Shown: one piece after another, positions 9,847 through 64,000 of the stretch | Numbering within the stretch: position 1 is the stretch's first letter | Layout of the letters: each line of letters starts with the position of its first letter | Assembly (NCBI GenBank): GCA_951406725.2 | Contig: OX597817.1 | Coordinates: 154,566,001-154,630,000, forward strand | Source of the DNA: Octopus vulgaris | Taxonomy: Eukaryota | Direction of reading: 5' to 3' | DNA length: 64,000 bases | The notes under the pieces: model-generated | What the model was told of the DNA's origin: nothing | The model's input: only the letters and a program-made list of their open reading frames with translations | Database searches by the model: none | Made by a program: the position numbers and the translations under genes

Positions 9847-10213
9847 AAAGGACACAGTGCCCACGACCTTCACTGGCCATCTATCATGAATTGTCTAGTT
9901 TTTGGGGGTTTTTTGTTGTTGTTTTTTTTTGTTTTGTTTTGTTTTTGTTTTTTTTGTACATCATCTTCTTCATACAATACCTTTTCTCATCTACCAGTGT
10001 CTTGTCTACATTGTCATTTCTTCAATTCATATTTCTTAACTTTTCCTGAATATCTCTCTGGAAAAACGTTTAGCCTTGTTTGTTTTTTTTTAATTGCCTC
10101 ATGTTATATGTGAGAATTTGTTGTCTCTATATTTTACTTTTTTACTACATCTCTCTATCAATATTTCTAGGATGTAAATTAATTGTGATTTTTTTACTTT
10201 ACTAATCTTTCAG

Positions 10214-10836
10214 TCCGTCTGCATAGAAATCCTTCCAATGTGATTGCAACATTATCCACCTCATCACATCCAAGAAAACAACTAGAACATAATGAACTTG
10301 ATATCTTAAACCCAAGTGAGCATTTTAAACCTTGTTATCCTTATTCTGTGGAGCCTTCAGCTGAAATAGTTCAGGATGAGGATGATGATGACGATGATAA
10401 TGATCCTAGCTGGCAGGATTTCAAGAGAGACCCATTTCAAACTCTACATAATCCTCAAAAAGTGATTGACTTGCATCAGAAGCCAAAAACTGTTGATAAA
10501 CTTACAGATTTAAACAAAACTTTTCTGTATGAATCTACAACTCATTCTCCTCAAAATTCTTCTGTGGCAGAGGCAGCATATAACCTTCCTTTTGAAAACC
10601 CTACAAAGAGGACCGAAGATGAGAATATTATTTGTCCTTATTGTTCAAGAAGCTTTCATTGTTTAGAAATGGTTAAATTCCAAGAGCATATTGCTAAATG
10701 TTCCTCCCAAGGTGAAACAAGAGACTCACACCGTAAATGTCCTGTATGTGACAAAAACTTTCAACATGTATCTCAAAAGGATTTTGAAGTGCATGTTAAC
10801 ATGCATTTTGACCAAATGGATGGGCTGGATATCTGA
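10214..10836 (+). CDS. Terminal coding exon of a TANK/TBKBP1/TAX1BP1-like protein with two UBZ1-type zinc fingers
   Basis: TTTCAG acceptor at 10208-10213; the frame is open to TGA at 10836. Zinc-finger motifs CPYC...FQEHIAKC and CPVCDKNF...DFEVHVNMHFD; the second resembles the C-terminal UBZ of TAX1BP1/TANK. An AT-rich 3'UTR with AATAAA follows. Confidence 0.8.
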
Positions 10837-25560: not shown

Positions 25561-26099
25561 ATCATGTCATATAGCCAGCTGGAGACGATATCTCCTGGAG
25601 CTAAATTACAGCAACATTCGTCCTACACCAGGACTGCCATGTTATGTTGGCAAACAATCTTTACTACTAAGTACTGTTGCTGAATATCTCACGTTGTGAG
25701 ATTTGAAAATGGTAATTTTCTAATATTTTTTGTTGTCGAATACTCTGAATTTCTCGAAATTCTGCCAAAGGATATTTGGATTTACCTGTTATGCATGAGG
25801 ATTTACCTGAGATATGTATTTTATTTACATTTACTGGTGCCTTATTGTTGAACTTTTGTAGCCCGATTCTTTTACTACTGAGTGCTTTATTGATATCTAC
25901 CAGGATCTTTTAATCCTTTTTTCTTTTAACAGTGTGTGTGTGTGTGTGTGCGTGTGCGCGTCCGTGTGTGCGTGTGTGTGTACACATATTTATATATTTA
26001 TTTCATCTATTATTCTGATGAAATATCTTTCGAATATTTTCCATTGATATCTGCACTTTCTTTGGTTCTTTGATATCCAAACTAAAACTAAACCATGGA

Positions 26100-26286
26100 G
26101 GATCTTTTCAGTTTGAAGGCCAGATTTTCCTAGTTAACTAAACAATTTGAAATTGTAATTAGAAATTACAATTCCGTTTTCATTTTGGTTTACAATTATA
26201 TTTTCTTTTGACACATTCTACCAGTATACGAAGTTTCAAATTGTTTAGTTAACTAGGAAAATCTGGCCCTCAAACCGAAAAGATCC
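26100..26286. mobile_element. Short MITE related to 50058-50700, in the TRP gene 3'UTR
   Basis: About 53-bp TIRs (GGATCTTTTC...CTAGTTAACTAAACAATTTGAAA). It shares ACACATTCTACCAGTATACGAAGTTT with the 50058 element. Confidence 0.75.
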
Positions 26287-26320
26287 CTAATGGATTCTGT
26301 AAGAATGACTAACTTCCCAT

Positions 26321-29300
26321 TTATTTCATTTTTGATTGTTTGTTTTTGTTTTTGTTAAATGATAAAATAGCGTAATATTTAATCGAATCGTCCTCATTAT
26401 CAAGACATTTCATTCTTTTAATCTTTCTAGTATAGAAGAATGATCTTACGCAAGGAAGAATCTTCTCAACTCGAATGGCTTGTTTGATTGAATCTATTTG
26501 CCAGTTAAGTTCGTTTCTTGATTTAATAACTGAATAAGTATCATTTAACATTGCCGTCAGAAGATTTATAAAAATAATGACGCCTGTTATAAAATATAAG
26601 CAATATAATACTTTGTAAAGGTCAGTCAGTAAACTGACTTCATTCAGGGCATCTTTCAAATTATATTCAAATATTTCTTCCATTCCTAACAATAGATTAA
26701 ACAGTGCAAAGATTGTTAACCAAGGGCTGTCGTCCTTAATTTTACCGGAACCATTTAACCAGATATGAAATAAAAGCGAAAAAGCTAATAAAACGCACGC
26801 GTACATGCCAAAAAACCTGAGAATGTCCCTTTCAATCATTTCTGATAGCACACGCCAAAAGTAATGCAATGGTTTAAAACCTCGTATAAAAGTTATGCCA
26901 AGAAGCCAACCATAGCATAAAACTACACCTAAACAAAAGTAGTAGTCTGGATCATTTGTCCATAGCTGAATAATCCATGCGATAGAAAGTACTGAATAAA
27001 TGGACATTATTGTTGTTAATGCAAATTTTTTTTTTACATATTTTCTCAATTTTTTAAATTTATATCGAAAAGAATTTTTGTCTGCCGATGAGCATATCAT
27101 ATTGTTTTGATGATGATTTTTATCATCTTCTTCAGGCTCCTCATCACGTCCTTGATATCCTAAATAATTGCAGGTAGAACGGAACGAAGATATCAGACAG
27201 AAAATTAAGATTACAACTGGTTCACATAAGCTACAAATAATTATGGGGTTTAAGTTAATGTTCTTTGCTTCATCTATTCTATATTTCACCAGGCAATTGG
27301 CAGTATAAGTCAATAAGATCATATGTGAAAAATGCACTGCCATTGCCACGATACACAGATCATGATTCATTTTTTCGTATACCTCTGCAATATGTTTTAA
27401 TGGTAAGATAGTGAAAAGTTCCCCAAGCGCTGGCTTAGTTTCCATATTAAGAAATATTTCAAAGGCGCTATTAGAAGGCATACTTGTATCAGAGTTTCTT
27501 TTAATGCTTTTGAAATACATATCATGGTTTAACAGGATTTGTGTCACATCAAAATACTTACGTTCGCCTATATCAAACTGCGTTACATATTTTAGTGTCA
27601 TCAGTTTTTCTATAATGTCTTTAGCACATTTTATGAAAGCCAAACTAAACACACATAACTGTTTTTTGTTCTTCACTTCAAAAATTAATTTTCTGAAATC
27701 TTTGGAAGAAAATTTCAAGTTATTTTTAGAAGTAAAATGATCATGAAGTACGTCGAAAAATTCGAGACATTCACTGTTTTTGATGCAAATTTTAACTAAA
27801 TGATGGAGGACAGTATTTTCTTTCTCTTTGTACTTTAATGTTAAATCAATATTGTGTTGAAGTAACCTTTCAAAGCAACATAAAAAACTATTTTCAATGG
27901 CTTTAAAAACTACAGTTTCTCCTTCATTATTCCTTTTGTTGAGGTCTGCTTTGTTCATTTTAAACTCATAAATATCAAGCATCTTCTGAAAGATTTCTGG
28001 TTGCTTTGCACGAATAGCTAGATGATATGGGGTATCACCATTTATATCAGATGTATTACAGTTCAAAATACGGCATTCCCAAATAACGCCTGGTGAGCTA
28101 TATAGTGCAGCCACATGAAGGGCATTTCTTCCTTCCTTATCAGTATCATTTAAATTATCCCAAGAATGTCTGTTCATCACGTAATTAACTAAAAGCCTCA
28201 TGACTTCAGCAGAAGTGTTTTTAGATTTTGCAGCAATATGCAAAATTGTTTCCCCATTGCAATTTTTAATATTAGCTTTTGCTCCTAATTTAAGAAACGC
28301 ATTTATTGTTTCAAAACTTCCAGTCGAAACAGCTAAATGAAGCGCGGTTTCCTCATTATTATTTTGTTCATTAAGGAAATTTGGGTCCTTAAAACGGTCC
28401 ACGATTGCATGATGCTTTCCTTGAGCGGCAATATGCAGTATTGTATTACCATCCTCATCTTTTATTTTCATATCTAATTTACGTTCTTCTAAAATCTCTA
28501 GTCCACTTAAATCTCCATTTTTTGCAATTTCAAACACAGGTGATCGAGTGTTAAATAGCATCTCCAACTCGGTGCTTCCATTAATAATTTTTTCCCTAAT
28601 AATATATATGAGACCTTGAAAACAGGCTTTATCTCTCTTAAGTAGTGCAAAGGACCAAATATCCTTGCCTTCCATATTCTTGAGATAGACTTCACAACCA
28701 AATTCTATCAGCATCCGAACTATATGCATCTGATCATTTTGTATTGCCAAAAACAAAGCTGTATCGCCTTTTGCATTTGTTACATTAAGGTCTGCCTTAT
28801 TCTGGATTAAAAGTTGTAAGACATCTTCGTGACCTTTATTCGCTGCATAATGAATAGGATATTGCTGGTAGCAGTCAGGGGTGTTCACATCAATCAGAGA
28901 TGAGGCAATTATCGATTCAACGATTTGACTGTAGCCGAAAGCTGATGCAAGATTAAGAGATGATATTAAATCTGATTTATGTTCATTTGTAAAATGTCCT
29001 AAAAGAATGTTGACACATTCAATGTATCCATAACGTACTGCCCAACGAAGTGCTGTACACCCATTAACGTTTTTTAAAAATGGGCAAGCACCCATTCTTA
29101 TAAGCTCTTGAATTAGTAACTTTTGATCACCCCGTGTCGCCCACATTAACGCAGTTTCTTCCATCAAAGTTTTACTATCCACGGTAATTCCCTGCGATTT
29201 ATAGAAATTCGTTAATTCACTAAAGCCTAAATAAGCAGCTAAATGGTAACATGTTGCTGTTCGGAATGATTTCCCTGGAATATTCATAAGAATTTCTTGT

Positions 29301-29677
29301 AGAATAATTTCCGGACGTTTTTCCTTTGGGAATTTGTCTAAGAAACATTTTGCCATATCTTTATCGTTTGATTCAGTTATATATTGTAATAAACTTTTCT
29401 CAATAATTCCTTCATTTCTAACTAGGTCATATTTCTTAAGCAAGATATATTCATCTAAATATTCAATTAGACACTTGATTGTTTCGATTTGGTTATCTTC
29501 CATAGCATATTGCAAGGCACGTTGTTTCAGAGAATCCGACTTATTTTCCAGGTATTCTTTAAGAAGTTCTACTGAGTCATCTCTTACTATCCTTCGCAAT
29601 TCATCGGAAGACGTAGCTGGTTGTTCTGACCAGTCAATGCCTTTGAATTGTTCAAAGTTATAAGCTTCTGGGACTCT
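26321..29677 (-). CDS. Large coding exon (1118 aa plus stop) of an ankyrin-repeat TRP cation channel with a TRPV-like core
   Basis: Uninterrupted 3.36-kb ORF with a TTTTTGCAG acceptor ending at 29678 (phase 0). It has about 16-18 ankyrin repeats (TALHLA, TILHIA, TPYHLA etc.) and TRPV hallmarks: NTVLHHLV, YFDVTQI, S4-S5 GWLLGITFIRGF...MIERDILRF, pore LFNLLLGME, and S6/TRP helix FINLLTAMLNDTY...NW. Confidence 0.92.
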   Translation of the reverse strand, partial: RVPEAYNFEQFKGIDWSEQPATSSDELRRIVRDDSVELLKEYLENKSDSLKQRALQYAMEDNQIETIKCLIEYLDEYILLKKYDLVRNEGIIEKSLLQYITESNDKDMAKCFLDKFPKEKRPEIILQEILMNIPGKSFRTATCYHLAAYLGFSELTNFYKSQGITVDSKTLMEETALMWATRGDQKLLIQELIRMGACPFLKNVNGCTALRWAVRYGYIECVNILLGHFTNEHKSDLISSLNLASAFGYSQIVESIIASSLIDVNTPDCYQQYPIHYAANKGHEDVLQLLIQNKADLNVTNAKGDTALFLAIQNDQMHIVRMLIEFGCEVYLKNMEGKDIWSFALLKRDKACFQGLIYIIREKIINGSTELEMLFNTRSPVFEIAKNGDLSGLEILEERKLDMKIKDEDGNTILHIAAQGKHHAIVDRFKDPNFLNEQNNNEETALHLAVSTGSFETINAFLKLGAKANIKNCNGETILHIAAKSKNTSAEVMRLLVNYVMNRHSWDNLNDTDKEGRNALHVAALYSSPGVIWECRILNCNTSDINGDTPYHLAIRAKQPEIFQKMLDIYEFKMNKADLNKRNNEGETVVFKAIENSFLCCFERLLQHNIDLTLKYKEKENTVLHHLVKICIKNSECLEFFDVLHDHFTSKNNLKFSSKDFRKLIFEVKNKKQLCVFSLAFIKCAKDIIEKLMTLKYVTQFDIGERKYFDVTQILLNHDMYFKSIKRNSDTSMPSNSAFEIFLNMETKPALGELFTILPLKHIAEVYEKMNHDLCIVAMAVHFSHMILLTYTANCLVKYRIDEAKNINLNPIIICSLCEPVVILIFCLISSFRSTCNYLGYQGRDEEPEEDDKNHHQNNMICSSADKNSFRYKFKKLRKYVKKKFALTTIMSIYSVLSIAWIIQLWTNDPDYYFCLGVVLCYGWLLGITFIRGFKPLHYFWRVLSEMIERDILRFFGMYACVLLAFSLLFHIWLNGSGKIKDDSPWLTIFALFNLLLGMEEIFEYNLKDALNEVSLLTDLYKVLYCLYFITGVIIFINLLTAMLNDTYSVIKSRNELNWQIDSIKQAIRVEKILPCVRSFFYTRKIKRMKCLDNEDDSIKYYAILSFNKNKNKQSKMK

Positions 29678-31086
29678 CTGCAAAAAGTTTTATTTAAAAA
29701 TAAATAAACAATATAAACAGTTGATGTCTGTATATAATTATTAATTGTACTACAATGTTTAAGATAAGAATAAAATTTTGCATAATAAAACACAGATTAT
29801 TTAACATTTAACATTCCCAACAGGCATTTAAATTGAAAAATAAAATCTATAATGATAAAAATGTAATTCTGTCTGTCCATCTGGGACCCTTGTAGTTCAT
29901 TCTACATTTGCTCTACATAAACATATACCTTTTTGGAATCAGGATGATCCCGGAATTGAAAATCGGTCCTTCATTTGGTTCTTGAACATCTAGCATTGGG
30001 ATCTGATTTAAAAGCATTTGGGTTGCTATTACTAGCATGTAAAGCTTGGATGATTCCCGCCATCTTGGTTAGCATTTGTCAAATGACGTCACAGATCAAG
30101 GGAGAAATAAATGACATTTGCTTCGTTAATTTTACGTCGTAATAAGAACTTTGGGATTAAATGACCAACAGTTGGAATTCAACTTGGGACTGGGAGAATA
30201 GAATGATTACATTACTGAATTAATTCTCATCTATCCATAACCTCTGATTAAACACCACCATGTAGTCATTATAGACGTATTATAGTGAATGTCATTTAGC
30301 TGTCTTTAGTTTTGAGTCGCAGGCGCAATTAGTTCTCCGCAAGAGCTAGCTTAAAAGTCTGTATGGAGTGTGGCTTTTTAGCTAGTTAAAAATAAATTAA
30401 ATGTTTCTTTTAGGACAGCTTAGAAAAACAACACTTTCTGGAACATTATAACAGATTACAGGAAATTGGCAGTAATTCTACATAAACCTAAATTATTTTT
30501 AGGATTCTTGGAAAGGATATAACAAAACTGTTTGTAGTTGTCTTCTAGAGACCAAGGTGAATCTGAGCACTAGTTCTCAAAAAGACACCAATCATACTGA
30601 TTTTTTTTCTATTTGCATGAAACGATTAGCTGTGCATGCTCATTTCATTTGCTTTGGTCAAAGCAGTGAGAGTTAAATATCTTGTTTAGGAACAGTGAGG
30701 GAATCTTGATATCCACACAAACCTCCGATTCTCCCGCCAAAAAGGAATTAATGCCAAACTTGGCATCCGATATTATTTGAATTTAAGAAACTTTAGGCAT
30801 TTATTTCGACGCGCTATCATTTACTCACGCCCGTTCACTCACGACCGTCAATTATAATCCTTTCTATTATAAGCACAAAGCATGAAATTTTGGGGGAAAT
30901 GGGGGCAGAGACTAGTCGATTTCATCAACCCCAGTACTTGAGTGGTCCTTATTTCATCGACCTCGAAAGAATGAATGTGAAGTTACCCTCGGTGGAATTT
31001 GAACTCAGAAGGGAAAGACAGACGAAACGCCATTAAGCATTTTGTCCAGTGTGCTAACAATTCTACCAGTTCGCCGCCTTGATGAC

Positions 31087-31139
<53 letters not shown>

Positions 31140-31521
31140 TGCCGATGACGATGATGATGATGATGATGCCTTTTCAAGTCACTGGAGTTCTCTCTCCCAG
31201 TCTGCTTGAAGTTGACAGTACATCTCACGAATTGGTGGTCCACGTTGCTAACTATCTGAATCTGTGGAGAGCTTATACTAATCCTATCTGCTAACCTAAC
31301 GTAATTTGATATACGTGGAGTTCAAATTCCGCTGAGGTTGACTTTGCGTACTGGGATCGATCTGATCAACTGGCCCCTCCACCAAAATTTCGGTACCTTG
31401 TGCCTATAGTAGAAAAGGATATTGTTGTTAATTACCATATCAGCTTTTGTTGGATGATCAAAGGTGTTCTAGCCGTGACTATCCAATCTATTTTCAGAAC
31501 TGCATTTTCCACTGAGTCTTT

Positions 31522-31783
31522 GGTGGTGGTGGCGGCGGCGGTGGTGGTGGCGGTGGCGGTGGTGGTGGCGGTTTTGGTTGTGGTGGTTGTGGTGGTGGTG
31601 GTGGCGGTGGTGGTTGTGGTGGTGGTTGTGGTGGTTGTGGTGGTGGTGGCGGTGGTGGTGGTGGCGGTGGTGGTGGTGGCGGTGGTGGTGGCGGTAGTGG
31701 TGGTGGTGGTGGTGGTGGTGGCGGTGGTGGCGGTAGTGGTGGCGGCGGTGGTGGTGGTGGTGGTGGCGGTGGCGGTGGTGGTG
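31522..31783 (+). repeat. (GGT/GGC)n trinucleotide microsatellite in the TRP gene intron
   Basis: About 260 bp of GGT with interspersed GGC/TGT. Confidence 0.95.
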
Positions 31784-32316
31784 TAGCCCCAGGCTAATCC
31801 CTTGTAGTTCATGACATTTTGTGTAGTGTACTGTTTTTTGTATTAGAGTTATTGAAAGAGCCTCCATGCAGTTGATCGCCCATTTCCAGCCAAGCCTCCT
31901 TCGAATAACATCCTGCTAAATTAGTTTCAAATTGTGACACAAGACCAGAAATTTCGGAGTAAGGCGTTAAGTTGATTACATCGATCCCAATCTCTTTGCT
32001 AAATCTAATCGATACTGCTCTAAGTTTTCGTTTCAATATGACCCTCCACCGGTTGTTAATAATAACTCCTTGAATACTTATTTTTTCAACCCCGAAAATG
32101 AAAGACAAAGTCGATCCCGGCAACATTTGATCTTAGAACATAAAGTCTGAAGAAATGCCGTTAAGCATATTTTCCGACACGGTAAGAATTCTGCCAAGTC
32201 GCCGCCTTACCATCTTAACAAATTAAAAAACCAAATAATAATTTATTGCTATTCATGTCAGGCCCAGACGTGAATAATGTTCTTAATACAATAATGTGAA
32301 AGACAAAAATAAATAA

Positions 32317-32461
<145 letters not shown>

Positions 32462-32480
32462 AAGGAGTAGAATTACTAAC

Positions 32481-32579
32481 CTGGGGGATATTTCCTATGA
32501 CTATTCGATCTTCAAGTTCATCTATGTTAGAAACAACGGGAAACATTTCATCCGGCTCAAAAGCTTGGTCACCAGACAT
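32481..32579 (-). CDS. First coding exon of the TRP channel (MSGDQAFEPDEMFPVVSNIDELEDRIVIGNIPQ)
   Basis: ATG at 32579 in GCCGCAATG context, with an in-frame TAA upstream. It has exactly 33 codons, then a CAG|GTTAGT donor (phase 0) matching the phase-0 acceptor at 29677. An upstream TTTTCTAG acceptor ending at 32695 implies a spliced 5'UTR (exon 32694-32481). Confidence 0.75.
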
Positions 32580-32998: not shown

Positions 32999-33225
32999 TT
33001 ACTCTTTATCTTTTATTAAACTTTTAATACTTTTGATATATATTTAAAATAATATAAATTAAATTAATTTTATGTATTGGCTTATGTTTTTCATTGTTTG
33101 ATTTGCCTAATAGTGGTTTTATCTCTAATTTAATATAATATAATATAATATATTTATACTATAAAATTGGATTTAATCCTAAATCTGATTTTTCCCTGTA
33201 AGTTTGGATTTATTCCCTAATATTT

Positions 33226-33271
<46 letters not shown>

Positions 33272-33390
33272 TTTATTTAAAGCAGCAGAAAATTCTACAA
33301 AACCTGTTACTCTGAGTTTTGCGTTGCCGTTCATCGGACAGTTTTTGCTAGAATATATATATATATTATTACTACTACTATTATTTCTGC

Positions 33391-34124
33391 CTGTTCGGGA
33401 TAAACTCTACCGGCACGGAAGTGCAGTCAGACGGGCCTGCCTGAGGTGCGCCCAGGACGACGAAACCGTTCTGCACGCACTCGTCCAGTGCCCGAGTATT
33501 GCTGAACTATGGGCTTATGTCGAACAGCTACTGTTGCGTATAGGAGGGATCCAGCTATCAGCTGAATCCATAGTGAGGATTGCCCCGCCGACCTCCTTTA
33601 ATCGGGAGAGCAAGGCAGTTTTCCTTTGTCTAGTGGCTGTAGCGAAAGAGGTGATATGGTGGACTTGTTTGAAAGGGCTAAGGTCAGACACTTTCCTCTT
33701 TGGCCAAGGCCTCATCAACTTTTTCAAGTTTCACTTGAAAAGGAAGATGAGAGTAGAGAGGGAAGTACTGTCTCGTAGCAAGTTTATTGAAAGGTGGGTG
33801 AATGTCGCAAGAATGGCCAGTATAAACGGACTAATTCTGAGGATACACCTGTGAAAAATTAAAAGGAAATATAAAAGAAGAAAGGGTCTCTCTACCTCCC
33901 TTTTGACCAGGCTCCCGTGGCTTTTATGGGTTTTCCCACCAGTAACCTTTCGAAGCGCCTCCCCCCTATTGGGAGTTTTAATTGTTACTTACATTTCGTT
34001 GTTATCCTGCTTTTGTATACGGACTTTTTTCAAACGGACAAAACCCTTTGTAACTTTCATCCTGTGTTTTGTCCCTTTATGTTTAATTGATTTTTGTTAG
34101 CCCTTGTGGCCAATAAACGAATTA

Positions 34125-55640: not shown

Positions 55641-56990
55641 TTTCTTTGTATCAATCCCAGAACTTTCTTGCCTATATCATAAACTGACTTTTTAAGGGTC
55701 AGCCAATCCTCCCCAATATCTGCAGCATTCATTTCCTCTCGTAAAGTTCTCTCCACACTATTATACCTAAGACGATCAACATTCAGTCTTTTAGGCAGGG
55801 ACATCCCTGCAGCTCGGATTTTATGTTTTGTGACTAATTTCACTTTTGCACGTACTAGGCGGTGATCAGTCCAACACTCAGCTCCACGAAGAATACGAAC
55901 ACACTGCACATCCTGTCTGTCACGCACCCTAACAAGGATGTAATCCAGAATATGCCATTCTTTAGATGCAGGGTGCATCCATGTAGTCATAAACTTATTC
56001 TTTTGTTGAAACAGGGTATTGGTAACACACAGACGCAGCTCCACACACATCTAGCAGCAAAAGCATGCCATTACTATTACACTTCCCCACCCCATGCTTT
56101 CCAATTACAGTCCATGTGTTAAAATCCCTACCCACTCTAGCATTAAAGTCACACAGTATGATGACTTTGTCTGCCCGAGGGATATTTCTTATAATGCTCT
56201 TCAAAGCATGGTAGAAAGAAAGTTTTTCGTCATCAGTATAGCACATAGTTGGAGCATACATACTCACCAAGGTCATATAATTTCCTTTAGCCAAAGGAAT
56301 TCTCATGGACATAAGACGCTCATTAATTCTGATTGGGAATTCTTCCAACTTGTCCACAAGAGAAGTCTTAACAGCAAATGCCACTCCAGCTTCTCCTCTA
56401 AACTCTTCATCTCTCCCTTTCCAAAAGAATGTATATTTTCCACAAGATTCTGTAAGATGACCATCTCCAGGTAATCTCGTCTCAGATAAAGCAACAATGT
56501 CAAGATCATAGCATTGAAGCTCCTTCGCAACAAGTGCAGTCCTTCTTTCAGGACATTCAGAGGACTTGTGGTCAAGCAGCGTCCATACATTCCAACAGCC
56601 AATATTCATCAGTTTCTTTGGTTCTATCACAGTAGCATGATGACGGCCGGGTTCAGACTGTGATGCTCTGGAGCCCCTGCCAGGCCAAACTCTTTCAGCT
56701 GATGTGGTTCTAGAGTCCTTACTGCCATTTATTTTTATACTGTTTTGGTACATCATTGATTTTTGCTTTTTAAGGCTACAGCCAGCCATTCAGTTGAGAC
56801 TCACAGCACTATCAACAATCATGAATTAGGTAATCACTTTAATCAATCCAATGTAGTTATCGTGCAACACCTGTGCAAAAAGATTTTTTTTAAGTGAGGA
56901 AAGGCTGTGCACTGAGTTAATCCCACTCACTAAGCAACAGCAGTCATAATCCGAAAAAAAGAACAAGTCAACATCATTGCTAACCACTGA
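55637..56990 (-). mobile_element. RTE-clade LINE 5' portion (APE endonuclease), frameshifted
   Basis: IGCWNVWTL...PERRTALVAKEL..YDLDIVALSETR, YAPT, DFNARVG, TWMHP..K.WH.LDY and TDHRLV. Confidence 0.9.
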
Positions 56991-60092: not shown

Positions 60093-62478
60093 ATATATAC
60101 TCTTTAACTTGTTTCAGTCCGCCTTCAGTCAAGCAAATCAACCCCGGGACTTATTCTTTGAAAGCCCAGTACTTATTCTATCGGTATCTTTTGCCGAACC
60201 GCTAAGTGACGGGGACGTAAACACACCAGCATCGGTTGTCAAGCAATGCTAGGGGGACAAACACAGACACACAAACACACACATGCATATATACATATAT
60301 ACGACGGGCTTCTTTTCAGTTTCCGTCTACCAAATCCACTCACAAGGCTTTGGTCGGCCCGAGGCTATAGTAGAAGACACTTGCCCAAGGTGCCACGCAG
60401 TGGGACTGAACCCAGAACCCTGTGGTTGGTTAGCAAGCTACTTACCACACAGCCACTCCTGCACCCATACATATAAAGATATGTATGTATTTGTGTAGTC
60501 GCACACATCACATACACACTAATCCCAAGAACGTCTTTTTTTTTTTTTATAAATTTAATGCAACAGACAGTCTCGTTATAAACAACTGACTTCGTCTGCT
60601 TAAGAACAAGTTAATTGGCCTTCAGAGCCTTTTCAGAATTAAGGAAGTTGAAGACTAAAGGGCAGATAACTCAAAGTTCCCGCACATGCTGATTTTCATT
60701 ACGGGAAAATATTGCTTCATCGCTCGTCGTAGTTTTGGTGTGTTATGGCTGGAACTTGAACTAAACACTCAAAGAGTAAGTAAATATCATAAAAATACGA
60801 TTCTATTTATTTATTATTATATGTATTATGCTTCTTCTTTCTTTCTTTCTGAACAGTATCCCTTCATCTGAAAGTAGTTACGTAAGCGCCATGCAAGTGA
60901 TACGATGTGATGTGAGGAGCACCTAATTGAAAACTAAAACATTTACAGTGTAGAATAATTATATTAGTAATTTAAAATAGCATCCTTATAGTCAATTTTG
61001 TAATATTTTGTTATTTTATTATCTGTTATAAAGTATCAAGACGTTTCATCGTACATCAATGAACACCAGGTCGTTGAAACTAGGAATTTCCTCTTTTTAT
61101 GATGCAACTGTAAGCTTTTTATGAGTAAGATTAAAATCTAGAAGAATAATTCTTCACAGGCTTTGAATCTTGCGATTTAAAATTAACTTAAACAAAAGTT
61201 GATTACTTTTTGTGTTGGTCTATCCGTCACTTTTCTTGCCAGTTCATCATAGACCTTTGTCATAAAAGTCGAGATACGTCGTAATTCTACGCAGTATTTT
61301 GAAGTGCGTGATGGATCGCTGCCCTTAAGATTAGGGGCTCCTCACATCACAACATTATACCTCATAACTACGATCAATTTATTATATTTTTGTTTAAAAT
61401 GGAGATAATGCTGAACCTATGAGGCTGCTCATGTATTTTTCAATGAAGTTAGTATGATTAAATTATAAAATTGTTGCTGGTTAAGGACTGAAATGGTAGT
61501 GCCCTACTATGTAGTTTCATTCATGTAGCTTAACCTTAGAATCCCTTCGGAGTCAACTTCACCTGAATCACTTTTAGATCGAAACAACTCATGCCATTCA
61601 TGTAAGAGAGTCAGTTACATAAACCTATTAAGATTACGTAAGAATTGCTAAGTCGGGACCTGAGAGGAATGGTCTTCAAACTGAGAGAGAATTAGAGAGA
61701 ATGCGATGTGCTTCATGAAAAAATTAGAAATCATTGTAAAATAGAGGTGTGAAGCCCTTCGGTAGAAGATCAAATTGTTTCTAATGATAAGTTTATGGTG
61801 AAACTAATGGCATTAAGTTTTCCACCAGGGACTAAGTTTGCTCGTCCACAAAATTATAAGTTATTTGTTGAGCTAAATGTAAAAATATTATTTCAGGCCG
61901 AAATCTAGGTTTTATAAATGGTCACTAACTACTCTGAACTTATCTTGGGCGTTGTTTGAAATATAATCTCGCACTTTTCTTCAGCTATCTTATAAAGTGG
62001 CTTTTCCGGGAAAGATCGCTGTGTGTGTGTGTGTATAAACGCAAGCATAGCTGTCTTATTTAAGACGTTCTCATCGCAACCACGTGGTTTCGAGTTCAGT
62101 CCTGCTGCGCGACACCTTGGACAAGTGTCTTTTACACAGTGCCTTGTTAGTGAATTTGAGAGACGAAATCTTCATCATTTAACGTCCATTTTCCATGCTG
62201 GCATGGGTTGGACTATTCGGCTGGAACTGGCATGGCTATAAGCCGCACCTAGGTTCCATGGTCTGTTTGGCATGGTTTCCACAGCTCGATGCCCTTCCTT
62301 ACGTCAACCACTTTACAAGGTGTACTGGTGCTTTTTTTAAAATTTCATGCCACTGGCACTAATGAGATTGCTAAGTAACTTACTAGACTAATATTCCTTT
62401 TCAGCTTTGATCCATTTTTCTGTATTTTATTATTTAATATCTTATTTTTCTGTTTCAAATTTTAGGCACTCACCAGAA

Positions 62479-63856
62479 ATGGCACAGAGAGCCTTACAAC
62501 TGTCTTATAGACATTTTTGGCAACTATTACGTCCTGTGATTGCTCACAAATGCCCTTTCAAATGCAACAGATTTTATTCCAACAGAATATTTCAAAATCG
62601 TATTCTCAGTTTATCATCAATCCTCTTACAAGATGGGCTTGATGTCACAGAATTACCAATATTCATTCGTAAACTGGACCTCAGTAAATTTCCACATGAA
62701 AATGAGAAGAGTGTTACTCAGGTAAAACCAATGACAGCTGAAGAAGAATTCTTCCAAGAAAAATTAGAACAATGCAATAATCTGAAAGAAGTTTTCAAAC
62801 TGTTGGAAGTTCCTTCGGATGTGATCACGGGTTATACTGCAGCATTTGCTTTGCAGAAAATCTGCCATTTTCAGAGGAATGATACTGTTGGTGAAGCTGT
62901 TGATTCCTTCATACAAACAGCAGTAATGAATGAACTATATGAAATGGTGAAAAAAGAAGTAACCACTTTAAGTAACGACACATTATTTTGCCTCATGCGT
63001 TGCATCCTTACATCAGATTACAATATAATGGGATCGACACAGTTCTTGTTTGAAGAGATAGAAAAACGTATTAGTAACAGTAAATTTAGCATTGCAGAAC
63101 TGTGTGAACTGAGTTGCATTGCTTCTTTTCATTCTCAACAGACTCTTATTGAGACCTGTTGGATTCATATTGGAAACCGCTATGATGAGATCGATGCAAG
63201 TAACATCCATTTAGTTTTTCGATGCATTCCTACTTCAAAAAGACCCTTAATGAAACTAATTCGGAAGCAATTCTTTTTGTGTTGGTGGAAACTGAAAGGG
63301 TCAGATGTTGCTAGTATTGTCTTAGACATGCTTCGTTTGAAGATGAATGATATCAAAGTCCTGCAATGTATTGGAAAATGGACCCGTATGAATATACATG
63401 ATTTGAATGATGCTCATTTAACTCAAATTATTGCTGGATTTTTACATTTTCATTATACTGAATCAAGTATTATAAAATCTCTTGAGCGATATATTCCTGC
63501 TAAAATTGCTAAAATTGATTATAACCTGTTGGCTTTAGCAATGGAATATTGTCGAGCTCAACGTTATTTGTCTCCGTTACTATTTGATATTGTAGCAGAA
63601 GACTTTATTAAAAATGGTCAAAATTATTCGTGCCTACAGCTTTATTCTATTCTTCGACCCTATGGACAATTGAATTATTTGCCAACTGAAAGTACCAAGT
63701 TTTTCTTGAAAACAGAAGAAGTTCTTCAATCTAAAATATCAGACTTTACACTTCCAAATATTGTGGAGCTTTTATGTTCTTTTGCATTCTTACAACGATA
63801 TCCTCTCAACTTCTCACATTTCATACTTACACCATCATTTTTGTCCAAGATCAAAA
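62479..63856 (+). CDS. FASTKD3: FAST kinase domain-containing protein 3-like (mitochondrial), large first coding exon; the gene continues beyond the window
   Basis: TTTAG acceptor ends at 62465, ATG at 62479, GTAAGT donor at 63857 (phase 1). The Arg-rich, acid-free N-terminus looks like a mitochondrial presequence. The segment MEYC...L...VAE.F...PYGQLNYLP....F.K.E.VL...LL.S......P.NF follows the FASTKD3 pattern as I recall it. Confidence 0.82.
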
Positions 63857-64000
63857 GTAAGTAATTTCAATTTTACCTTTTATCAATACTTGTTTCAGTC
63901 ATTGAAATGCAGCCATGCTGGGTCACTGCTTTGAAAGGTTTAGTTGAAGAGTGGACTCGAGACAAAACACAACAAAGAATAGTTCTGATGTTAAGCTATC

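Follow-up and report, generated by a model that had tools for sequence, protein, structure and literature searches.

The subject of this report is a gene on the minus strand of a 64,000-nucleotide stretch of the Octopus vulgaris genome (contig OX597817.1, positions 154,566,001 to 154,630,000; hereafter the window), which encodes a TRP channel of 1151 amino acids (aa) and is intact, both its architecture and its orthologues being directly observed. We consider it probable that this two-exon gene carries a membrane core of TRPV type, likely derived from the intron-poor TRPVC/D-like channels of invertebrates, and that it belongs to a mollusc-wide clade which would have gained about 13 ankyrin units. 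The gene itself is not new, despite the novelty given to it by a sequence-only reading of this DNA, since the accessible parts of Molina-Carrillo et al. 2026 (PMC13402157) already include it as cephalopod γTRPA. On sequence comparison, that filing looks wrong or incomplete.

Gene structure and ankyrin array

The sequence-only reading had proposed a product of 33 and 1118 aa joined in phase 0, and this is borne out by the open reading frame (1122 codons, minus strand, 26321-29689), by the splice signals, with a T tract ahead of an exon 2 acceptor reading ...GCAG, and by the octopod orthologues. The two exons, separated by one phase-0 intron, give 1151 aa with a single stop, and all eight TRPV motifs quoted in that reading are found in the product, at residues 654, 741, 769, 963, 980, 1028, 1031 and 1071. 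The O. sinensis protein XP_036357758.1 (1151 aa) is different at 6 of 1151 positions, and that of O. bimaculoides, XP_014768751.1 (1150 aa), shows 86% identity with a matching N-terminus and exon junction. The features of the gene and its surroundings are as follows.

32481..32579, minus: coding part of exon 1, residues 1-33; 99 nt from ATG to GT donor; N-terminus matched in the O. sinensis and O. bimaculoides models
29678..32480, minus: sole intron, 2803 nt, phase 0, GT-AG, with simple repeats inside
26321..29677, minus: exon 2, residues 34-1151 plus stop, holding the entire channel core without introns (1122-codon open frame)
27599..29608, minus: ankyrin array, residues 57-726, about 16-19 units (Pfam; AlphaFold secondary structure)
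27599..28144, minus: the five units at the end of the array, colinear with the ankyrin domain of TRPV, long TRPV finger insertion absent (profile-profile alignment, 16 TRPV-type proteins)
27548..27580, minus: predicted linker beta-hairpin, residues 733-743 (predicted models and profile alignment)
26528..27370, minus: S1-S6 and pore helix, about residues 803-1083 (hydropathy; Ion_trans E 1.2e-6; model)
27080..27157, minus: charged S2-S3 loop, disordered in the model (predicted local distance difference test, pLDDT, <50)
26831..26833, minus: E982, TRPV-type one-residue insertion at the S4-S5 linker / start of S5
26675..26686, minus: filter G1031-M-E-E1034, E1034 aligned to the TRPV5 filter Asp
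26555..26557, minus: T1074, S6 gate position, Ile in other group-1 TRPs
26360..26524, minus: TRP helix with W1092, then two C-terminal strands (predicted) and no subsequent coiled coil
26090..26296, no strand: inverted repeat just past the stop, 63-nt arms, 90% complementary, very high multi-copy depth

Contigs of a related species, from runs guessed to be RNA, cover 26363-26978 and 27100-29680, that is most of exon 2, and in two studies such contigs leave the genomic sequence at 29680, their further 293 and 150 letters not matching the intron. They are a hint and not proof, as the DNA-like run gave no cover there. No listed run is recorded as RNA; such contigs show presence and not absence, and the joint between exons 1 and 2 is not directly covered by them.

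The O. vulgaris database model of this gene, CAI9722032.1 (796 aa), has no membrane part. It departs from the frame after residue 798 and splices into the inverted repeat at 26090-26296, which supplies its tail and costs it the membrane domain. The splice joint of this model was seen in none of the four runs, and one contig runs unspliced through its donor. As the model is named 'TRPA1-like' and a Dreissena relative 'ankyrin-3-like', the risk of mislabelling foreseen earlier is real. The gene may have been overlooked in a proteome screen because the database model lacks the membrane domain.

Within the array, Pfam delimits eight Ank_2 stretches and a home-made ankyrin hidden Markov model (HMM) gives 7 strong matches and 11 in total, while the AlphaFold model (55 relatives, pLDDT 84.8) displays 19 helix-pair units over residues 57-726 on visual counting, with degenerate units in the initial two or three places. 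Taken together, the earlier figure of 16-18 repeats was a fair estimate. The arrangement of short-ankyrin TRPV channels, with about 6 repeats and a long finger, is not found, and the array reaches the 14-18 repeats of TRPA.

Membrane core and phylogenetic position

Word-based homologue searches returned octopod orthologues only (3 and 2 proteins), and the wider family was therefore taken from a HMMER search with the 459 post-ankyrin aa, which gave 325 representatives at E up to 0.001 and 21 at 1e-30, the best 150 of the 325 being considered. Many of these relatives are 1050-1450 aa long and align over their full length at 25-32%. Ten were looked up, and the six clusters that carry a name are all molluscan, namely Lymnaea, Batillaria, Solemya, Pinctada, Dreissena and the chiton Liolophura; of ten more distant relatives, the two with a name (Batillaria and Lingula) are both short-ankyrin proteins of TRPV type. 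The clade is thus likely mollusc-wide, with full-length relatives in gastropods, bivalves and a chiton, and is neither cephalopod-specific nor lineage-specific in the narrow sense proposed before. A mixed search for comparison rows yielded TRPA and TRPN and no TRPV among the best 120 of 427 matches. For alignments and trees 69 rows were hand-picked, comprising 32 of the family, 19 of TRPV type, 15 TRPA and 3 TRPN/TRPC, with P0274 excluded as a broken model. Five of the 19 TRPV-type rows are identified: two TRPV5/6-like (P0148 by PDB search), one TRPV3-like, and octopus Nanchung and Inactive, rebuilt from exons.

Several comparisons of the part beyond the ankyrins point to TRPV. Against PDB sequences, the best 60 of its 105 matches are all TRPV, as are the best 60 of 268 obtained with a 34-row family profile (E 1e-48, from the linker through the C-terminal strand). 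Its fold finds TRPV at all of Foldseek ranks 1-50, and in the VIA structure comparison the best match is TRPV6 (Z 21.2, root-mean-square deviation 4.4, 363 aligned). The AlphaFold model also shows the linker hairpin, six membrane helices, the pore helix, the TRP helix and two C-terminal strands; the hairpin and strand, a TRPV trait, are predicted in both models, and a similar element occurs in TRPA1. Two measures were rejected as classifiers: Foldseek with the whole protein, whose score the ankyrins dominate, and ESM Atlas features, at 0.98 for TRPV, TRPA and TRPN alike.

Single positions agree with these matches. The insertion at 982 is present in 32/32 family and 19/19 TRPV-type rows and in 0/15 TRPA and 0/3 TRPN/TRPC rows, and that at 781-782 in 32/32, 14/16, 0/15 and 0/2 respectively, the trait at 982 having been defined from the present alignment. 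Positions 1075-1078 and 1092 are unlike those of all 15 TRPA rows, so that the TRPA S6 signature and its Trp-less TRP-like helix are absent; S6 and the Trp-bearing TRP helix are of the TRPV kind, a pattern shared with TRPN/TRPC which excludes TRPA and does not prove TRPV. With about 19 units and a VIA Z of 13.4 against NompC, the channel also does not show the roughly 29 ankyrins and TRPN-type core of TRPN.

In the first tree (190 columns, 69 rows) the family (98/93) forms one group with the vertebrate and 10 invertebrate TRPV-type rows (91/70), TRPA standing apart at 100/100. The third tree (348 columns, 40 rows, no TRPN/TRPC, rooted on TRPA) places the family (100/100) as sister to two short-ankyrin TRPV-type proteins (98/95), within the group of vertebrate TRPVs (89/91). 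The sequence-only reading had left the membrane region to be placed against TRPA1 and TRPN; in all three trees TRPA is a separate 100/100 clade that excludes the family, which consequently does not fall inside crown TRPA (alpha plus beta). The family nests with TRPV-type rows in two of the three.

From the trees, the unnamed TRPV-type neighbours may be inferred to be TRPVC/D, a lophotrochozoan branch at the base of the vertebrate TRPVs according to the available text of Morini et al. 2022 (PMC9664204). In the abalone data at hand, TRPVC/D-like genes have 1-3 exons, Nanchung/Inactive-type genes 16-18 and TRPA genes 24-32 (six rows). The two exons of the octopus gene agree with TRPVC/D, and its structure is therefore unlike that of TRPA.

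A number of observations weigh against a TRPV origin of the core. The long ankyrin finger of TRPV is absent from the octopus channel, and the long post-filter loop occurs in 32/32 family, 15/15 TRPA and 3/3 TRPN/TRPC rows but in 3/19 TRPV-type ones. A C-terminal heptad helix, by a home-made score, is found in 15/20 core members of the family, 4/12 distant ones and 13/15 TRPA, so that a TRPA-like tail is present in 15 of the 17 core members from outside the octopods, against 0/17 TRPV-type proteins. In the VIA comparison TRPA1 scores Z 17.3-18.0, level with Inactive (18.1) and TRPV1 (17.7-18.6), and TRPV4 just 12.5. TRPV sampling is thin, mostly unnamed and includes no TRPVL. The second tree (348 columns, 49 rows, with 20 long or redundant rows excluded and TRPN/TRPC included) puts the family (99/94) outside TRPV plus TRPA, with a warning from the tool of long branches at the root; family plus TRPV is not the best arrangement there, and the approximately unbiased (AU) test does not reject it (p 0.304). 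Nor do AU tests reject a clade of family plus TRPA (p 0.239, 0.104 and 0.078), although that clade is best in none of the three trees, with log-likelihoods 7-12 lower. Hence the earlier proposal of a TRPV-like core under a long ankyrin array holds as far as crown TRPA and TRPN are concerned, as PDB and Foldseek matches, VIA, trees and insertion agree, and is not secured against a sister relation to TRPA.

It is unlikely that the family instead represents an ancient lineage of its own, sister to TRPV as a whole or to TRPV plus TRPA and possibly allied to TRPVL, which would have kept a long array, long pore loop and C-terminal coil lost in crown TRPV and would survive only in molluscs, perhaps with other lophotrochozoans. 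The outgroup tree does place the family outside both groups (85/92), the long post-filter loop is common to TRPN/TRPC, and most family members have the heptad tail. TRPC and TRPM likewise have C-terminal coils. However, many losses would be required, 6 of the 6 named family clusters being molluscan, and the long branches of which the tool warns meet at the root of that very tree; once TRPN/TRPC are removed the family nests among TRPV-type rows on a starred branch. A W-W/F/Y-C motif ahead of the last repeat, present in 17/32 family, 2/17 TRPV-type and 0/15 TRPA rows, is common to the family and two TRPV-type rows.

The published placement as γTRPA would make the family a third TRPA branch, sister to crown TRPA, which split before the S6 and TRP-like helix of TRPA diverged and is TRPV-like by retention. 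We hold this to be quite improbable, despite the clade's bootstrap support (BS) of 100 in PMC13402157, the best Foldseek match of the whole model, which is fly TRPA1, the long array and heptad tail as in TRPA, and the AU tests given above. In the accessible methods of that paper, proteins were aligned by Clustal Omega with no trimming to the membrane domain, the root was Piezo and TRPVL was not included; an untrimmed alignment lets ankyrin content drive the grouping, and the BS of 100 covers the clade itself. Besides its lower likelihood in each tree, the TRPA placement is opposed by the two derived insertions (982 and 781-782), which both go with TRPV, and by the gene structure.

Very improbable, finally, is a chimera, in which an intronless core of TRPVC/D type would have acquired its N-terminal ankyrins, early in mollusc evolution, from TRPA or from a different ankyrin protein. 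Family and TRPA profiles do align along almost the full array (scores 890 and 827), while for the core and the five final repeats TRPV gives the best alignment; but ankyrin arrays align whatever their descent, both alignments need repeat-sized gaps, and the TRPA-like tail at the opposite end would require a second event.

The octopus channel is therefore described here as TRPV-like and not as a canonical TRPV, because it lacks the short ankyrin domain with a long finger; as it departs both from this TRPV arrangement and from the S6 and coil of TRPA, it is regarded as a new architectural variant of the group-1 TRP channels. More tentatively, the family may be an unrecognised mollusc TRP subfamily in which a TRPV lineage rebuilt the TRPA1 body plan (17-19 ankyrins and a C-terminal coil) round a TRPV pore. 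As part of the same tentative proposal, it would be the only surviving cephalopod relative of the vertebrate TRPV1-6 branch and a third vanilloid-type channel of the octopus; in octopods, loss of the coil, the Ile-to-Thr gate and many new cysteines would have further remodelled it into a fast-evolving sensor.

As a separate observation, crown TRPA has a very long stem and attaches, in the first two trees, beside Nanchung/Inactive and two unnamed TRPV-type proteins, not outside TRPV, which is possibly a long-branch effect.

Octopod changes, proposed mechanism and other loci

Two traits singled out before do not characterise the family. The acidic filter (GMEE) was read as special, but most members have G-M-G-E/D (GMGE in O. 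bimaculoides), E1033 occurs in 5/32 family rows against G in 17/32, and the acid at 1034 (22/32) is the usual TRP one. The long charged S2-S3 loop, of 49-52 residues in octopods, varies from 10 to 119 across the family. The octopods themselves differ from their relatives in other respects. Position 1074 is Thr in the three octopod rows and Ile in 29/32 family, 19/19 TRPV-type and 3/3 TRPN/TRPC rows; it aligns to TRPV5 I575, a lower-gate residue. The C-terminal coiled coil of TRPA is absent from all 3 octopod proteins, which end ahead of the heptad region. A family cysteine at 682, kept in 41 of 47 others, is replaced in octopods, which share many cysteines that the others lack. Past the ankyrins O. 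vulgaris and O. bimaculoides are 81% identical, whereas beta-TRPA and one exon of TRPN reach 96-97%, and by this measure the gene evolves fast.

TRPV channels are domain-swapped tetramers with a short G-M-x-acid filter which passes Na+ and Ca2+ non-selectively, and their TRP helix and linker sheet couple to the ankyrins. By analogy, four octopus subunits are predicted to build a domain-swapped cation pore, non-selective and permeable to Ca2+, whose G-M-x-E filter is TRPV1-like, and, in octopods, to assemble without the heptad helix in TRPV fashion via the linker hairpin and C-terminal strands. The ankyrin solenoid, three times longer, would curve beneath the membrane as in TRPA1 and might act, as there, as a cytoplasmic gating or regulatory module for ligand, thermal, chemical, redox or partner input. 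The polar Thr of the S6 gate would make the channel easier to open and might confer basal activity or a low threshold. A sensory role and a TRPV5/6-like role in epithelial Ca2+ entry may, on an equal footing, be considered.

Current work on cephalopod nociception and thermosensing reckons with two TRPVs and counts the present gene among the TRPAs; should its core be TRPVC/D-derived, the channel repertoire, naming and choice of agonists all change. The clade would then also offer a natural experiment on how a TRPV pore is affected by a long ankyrin array and by a coiled coil, since in octopods there is an array but no coil, and the gastropod, bivalve and chiton relatives possess the two together.

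In the O. vulgaris genome assembly (G000), an S4-S6 query found the gene itself and TRPN only (2 matches, 20 scored), and exon and family searches gave no second copy while recovering Nanchung, Inactive, TRPC, three TRPA and TRPN genes, all counts there being lower bounds. A degenerate DNA pattern for a TRPA S6 motif had no match in the genome, the exon ending within the motif. Octopus TRPN is encoded by a different gene, on C7. Two alpha-TRPA genes (C3:46958953 and C9:55159665) were seen besides the beta-TRPA on C2, whereas the table of PMC13402157, as available, lists for O. vulgaris just the one on chromosome 9. One TRPC gene (C13:21579751-21581731) contains three near-identical pore-S6 exons in tandem, which suggests mutually exclusive splicing of the pore. 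TRPC-like loci number at least six (C1, C6 at 115.62 Mb, C13, C15, C16 and C21), more than the two or three TRPC per species in the rows examined of PMC13402157.

Elsewhere in the window, on the plus strand, a frame at 10189-10836 has at its end a zinc finger of the autophagy-receptor kind (Zn-C2H2_12, E 1.6e-5) and resembles the last exon of a TAX1BP1/CALCOCO-type gene, and a 490-codon frame at 62392-63864 has a FAST_1 domain (E 1.8e-17), indicating a FASTK-domain gene. Retroelement remnants with zf-RVT and Exo_endo_phos matches lie at 33189-33854 (plus) and 55995-56789 (minus).

Comparison with known channels

LOC106868134 and LOC115210253 appear under 'γTRPA' in Table S1 of PMC13402157, whose O. 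vulgaris entry PV783902 (892 aa, 103018.76 Da, isoelectric point 7.29) matches residues 228-1119 of the present product (mass within 1.2 Da, isoelectric point 7.29); the O. sinensis entry corresponds to the same residues. The accessions together with mass and isoelectric point establish orthology to the cephalopod γTRPA loci. The gene is thus the same, published from partial sequence as a TRPA and given here a TRPV-type core and a clade that is likely mollusc-wide. In its accessible parts, the paper reports γTRPA in octopods, decapodiforms and Nautilus, leaves a wider range open, calls its labels a working framework and does not count γTRPA among the nine genes assayed. Literature searches, with subscription papers mostly outside their coverage, turned up no account of a TRPV-type clade with long ankyrin arrays; further background, seen in part, is in PMC12980990, PMC8539334, PMC8004665, PMC9680104 and bioRxiv 10.1101/2021.11.14.466824.

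TRPVL is described, in the text available, as sister to TRPV and patchy in invertebrates (PMC8749608), and the one molluscan TRPVL described, abalone TRPVL-like_30 (959 aa, 5 ankyrins, 25 exons), differs from the octopus channel in architecture. The Nanchung/Inactive-type OvTRPV1 and OvTRPV2, encoded in the same genome (C22 and C3), share the TRPV-type core and form a separate, intron-rich branch; the accessible part of bioRxiv 10.64898/2026.03.27.714695 presents them as the sole vanilloid channels of O. vulgaris. With TRPA1 (alpha and beta/basal) the octopus channel has in common its size, 15-18 ankyrins and a sheet-containing linker, and its non-octopod relatives add the heptad tail. It differs in S6 (x-A-M against G-L-A-V in 15/15 TRPA), in the Trp of the TRP helix (Arg in 15/15), in having the S4-S5 insertion and in its 2 exons against 24-32.

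A further likeness is with TRPVC/D (γTRPV) of molluscs and annelids, of which the survey in PMC13402157, as far as available, found none in cephalopods, and with vertebrate TRPV1-6, the two together supplying the nearest rows in two of the three trees. These share with the octopus channel the linker, S4-S5 insertion, S6, TRP helix, C-terminal strands and few introns, whereas the octopus channel has about 19 ankyrins against 3-6, no long finger and a longer post-filter loop, and most of its relatives carry a heptad tail.

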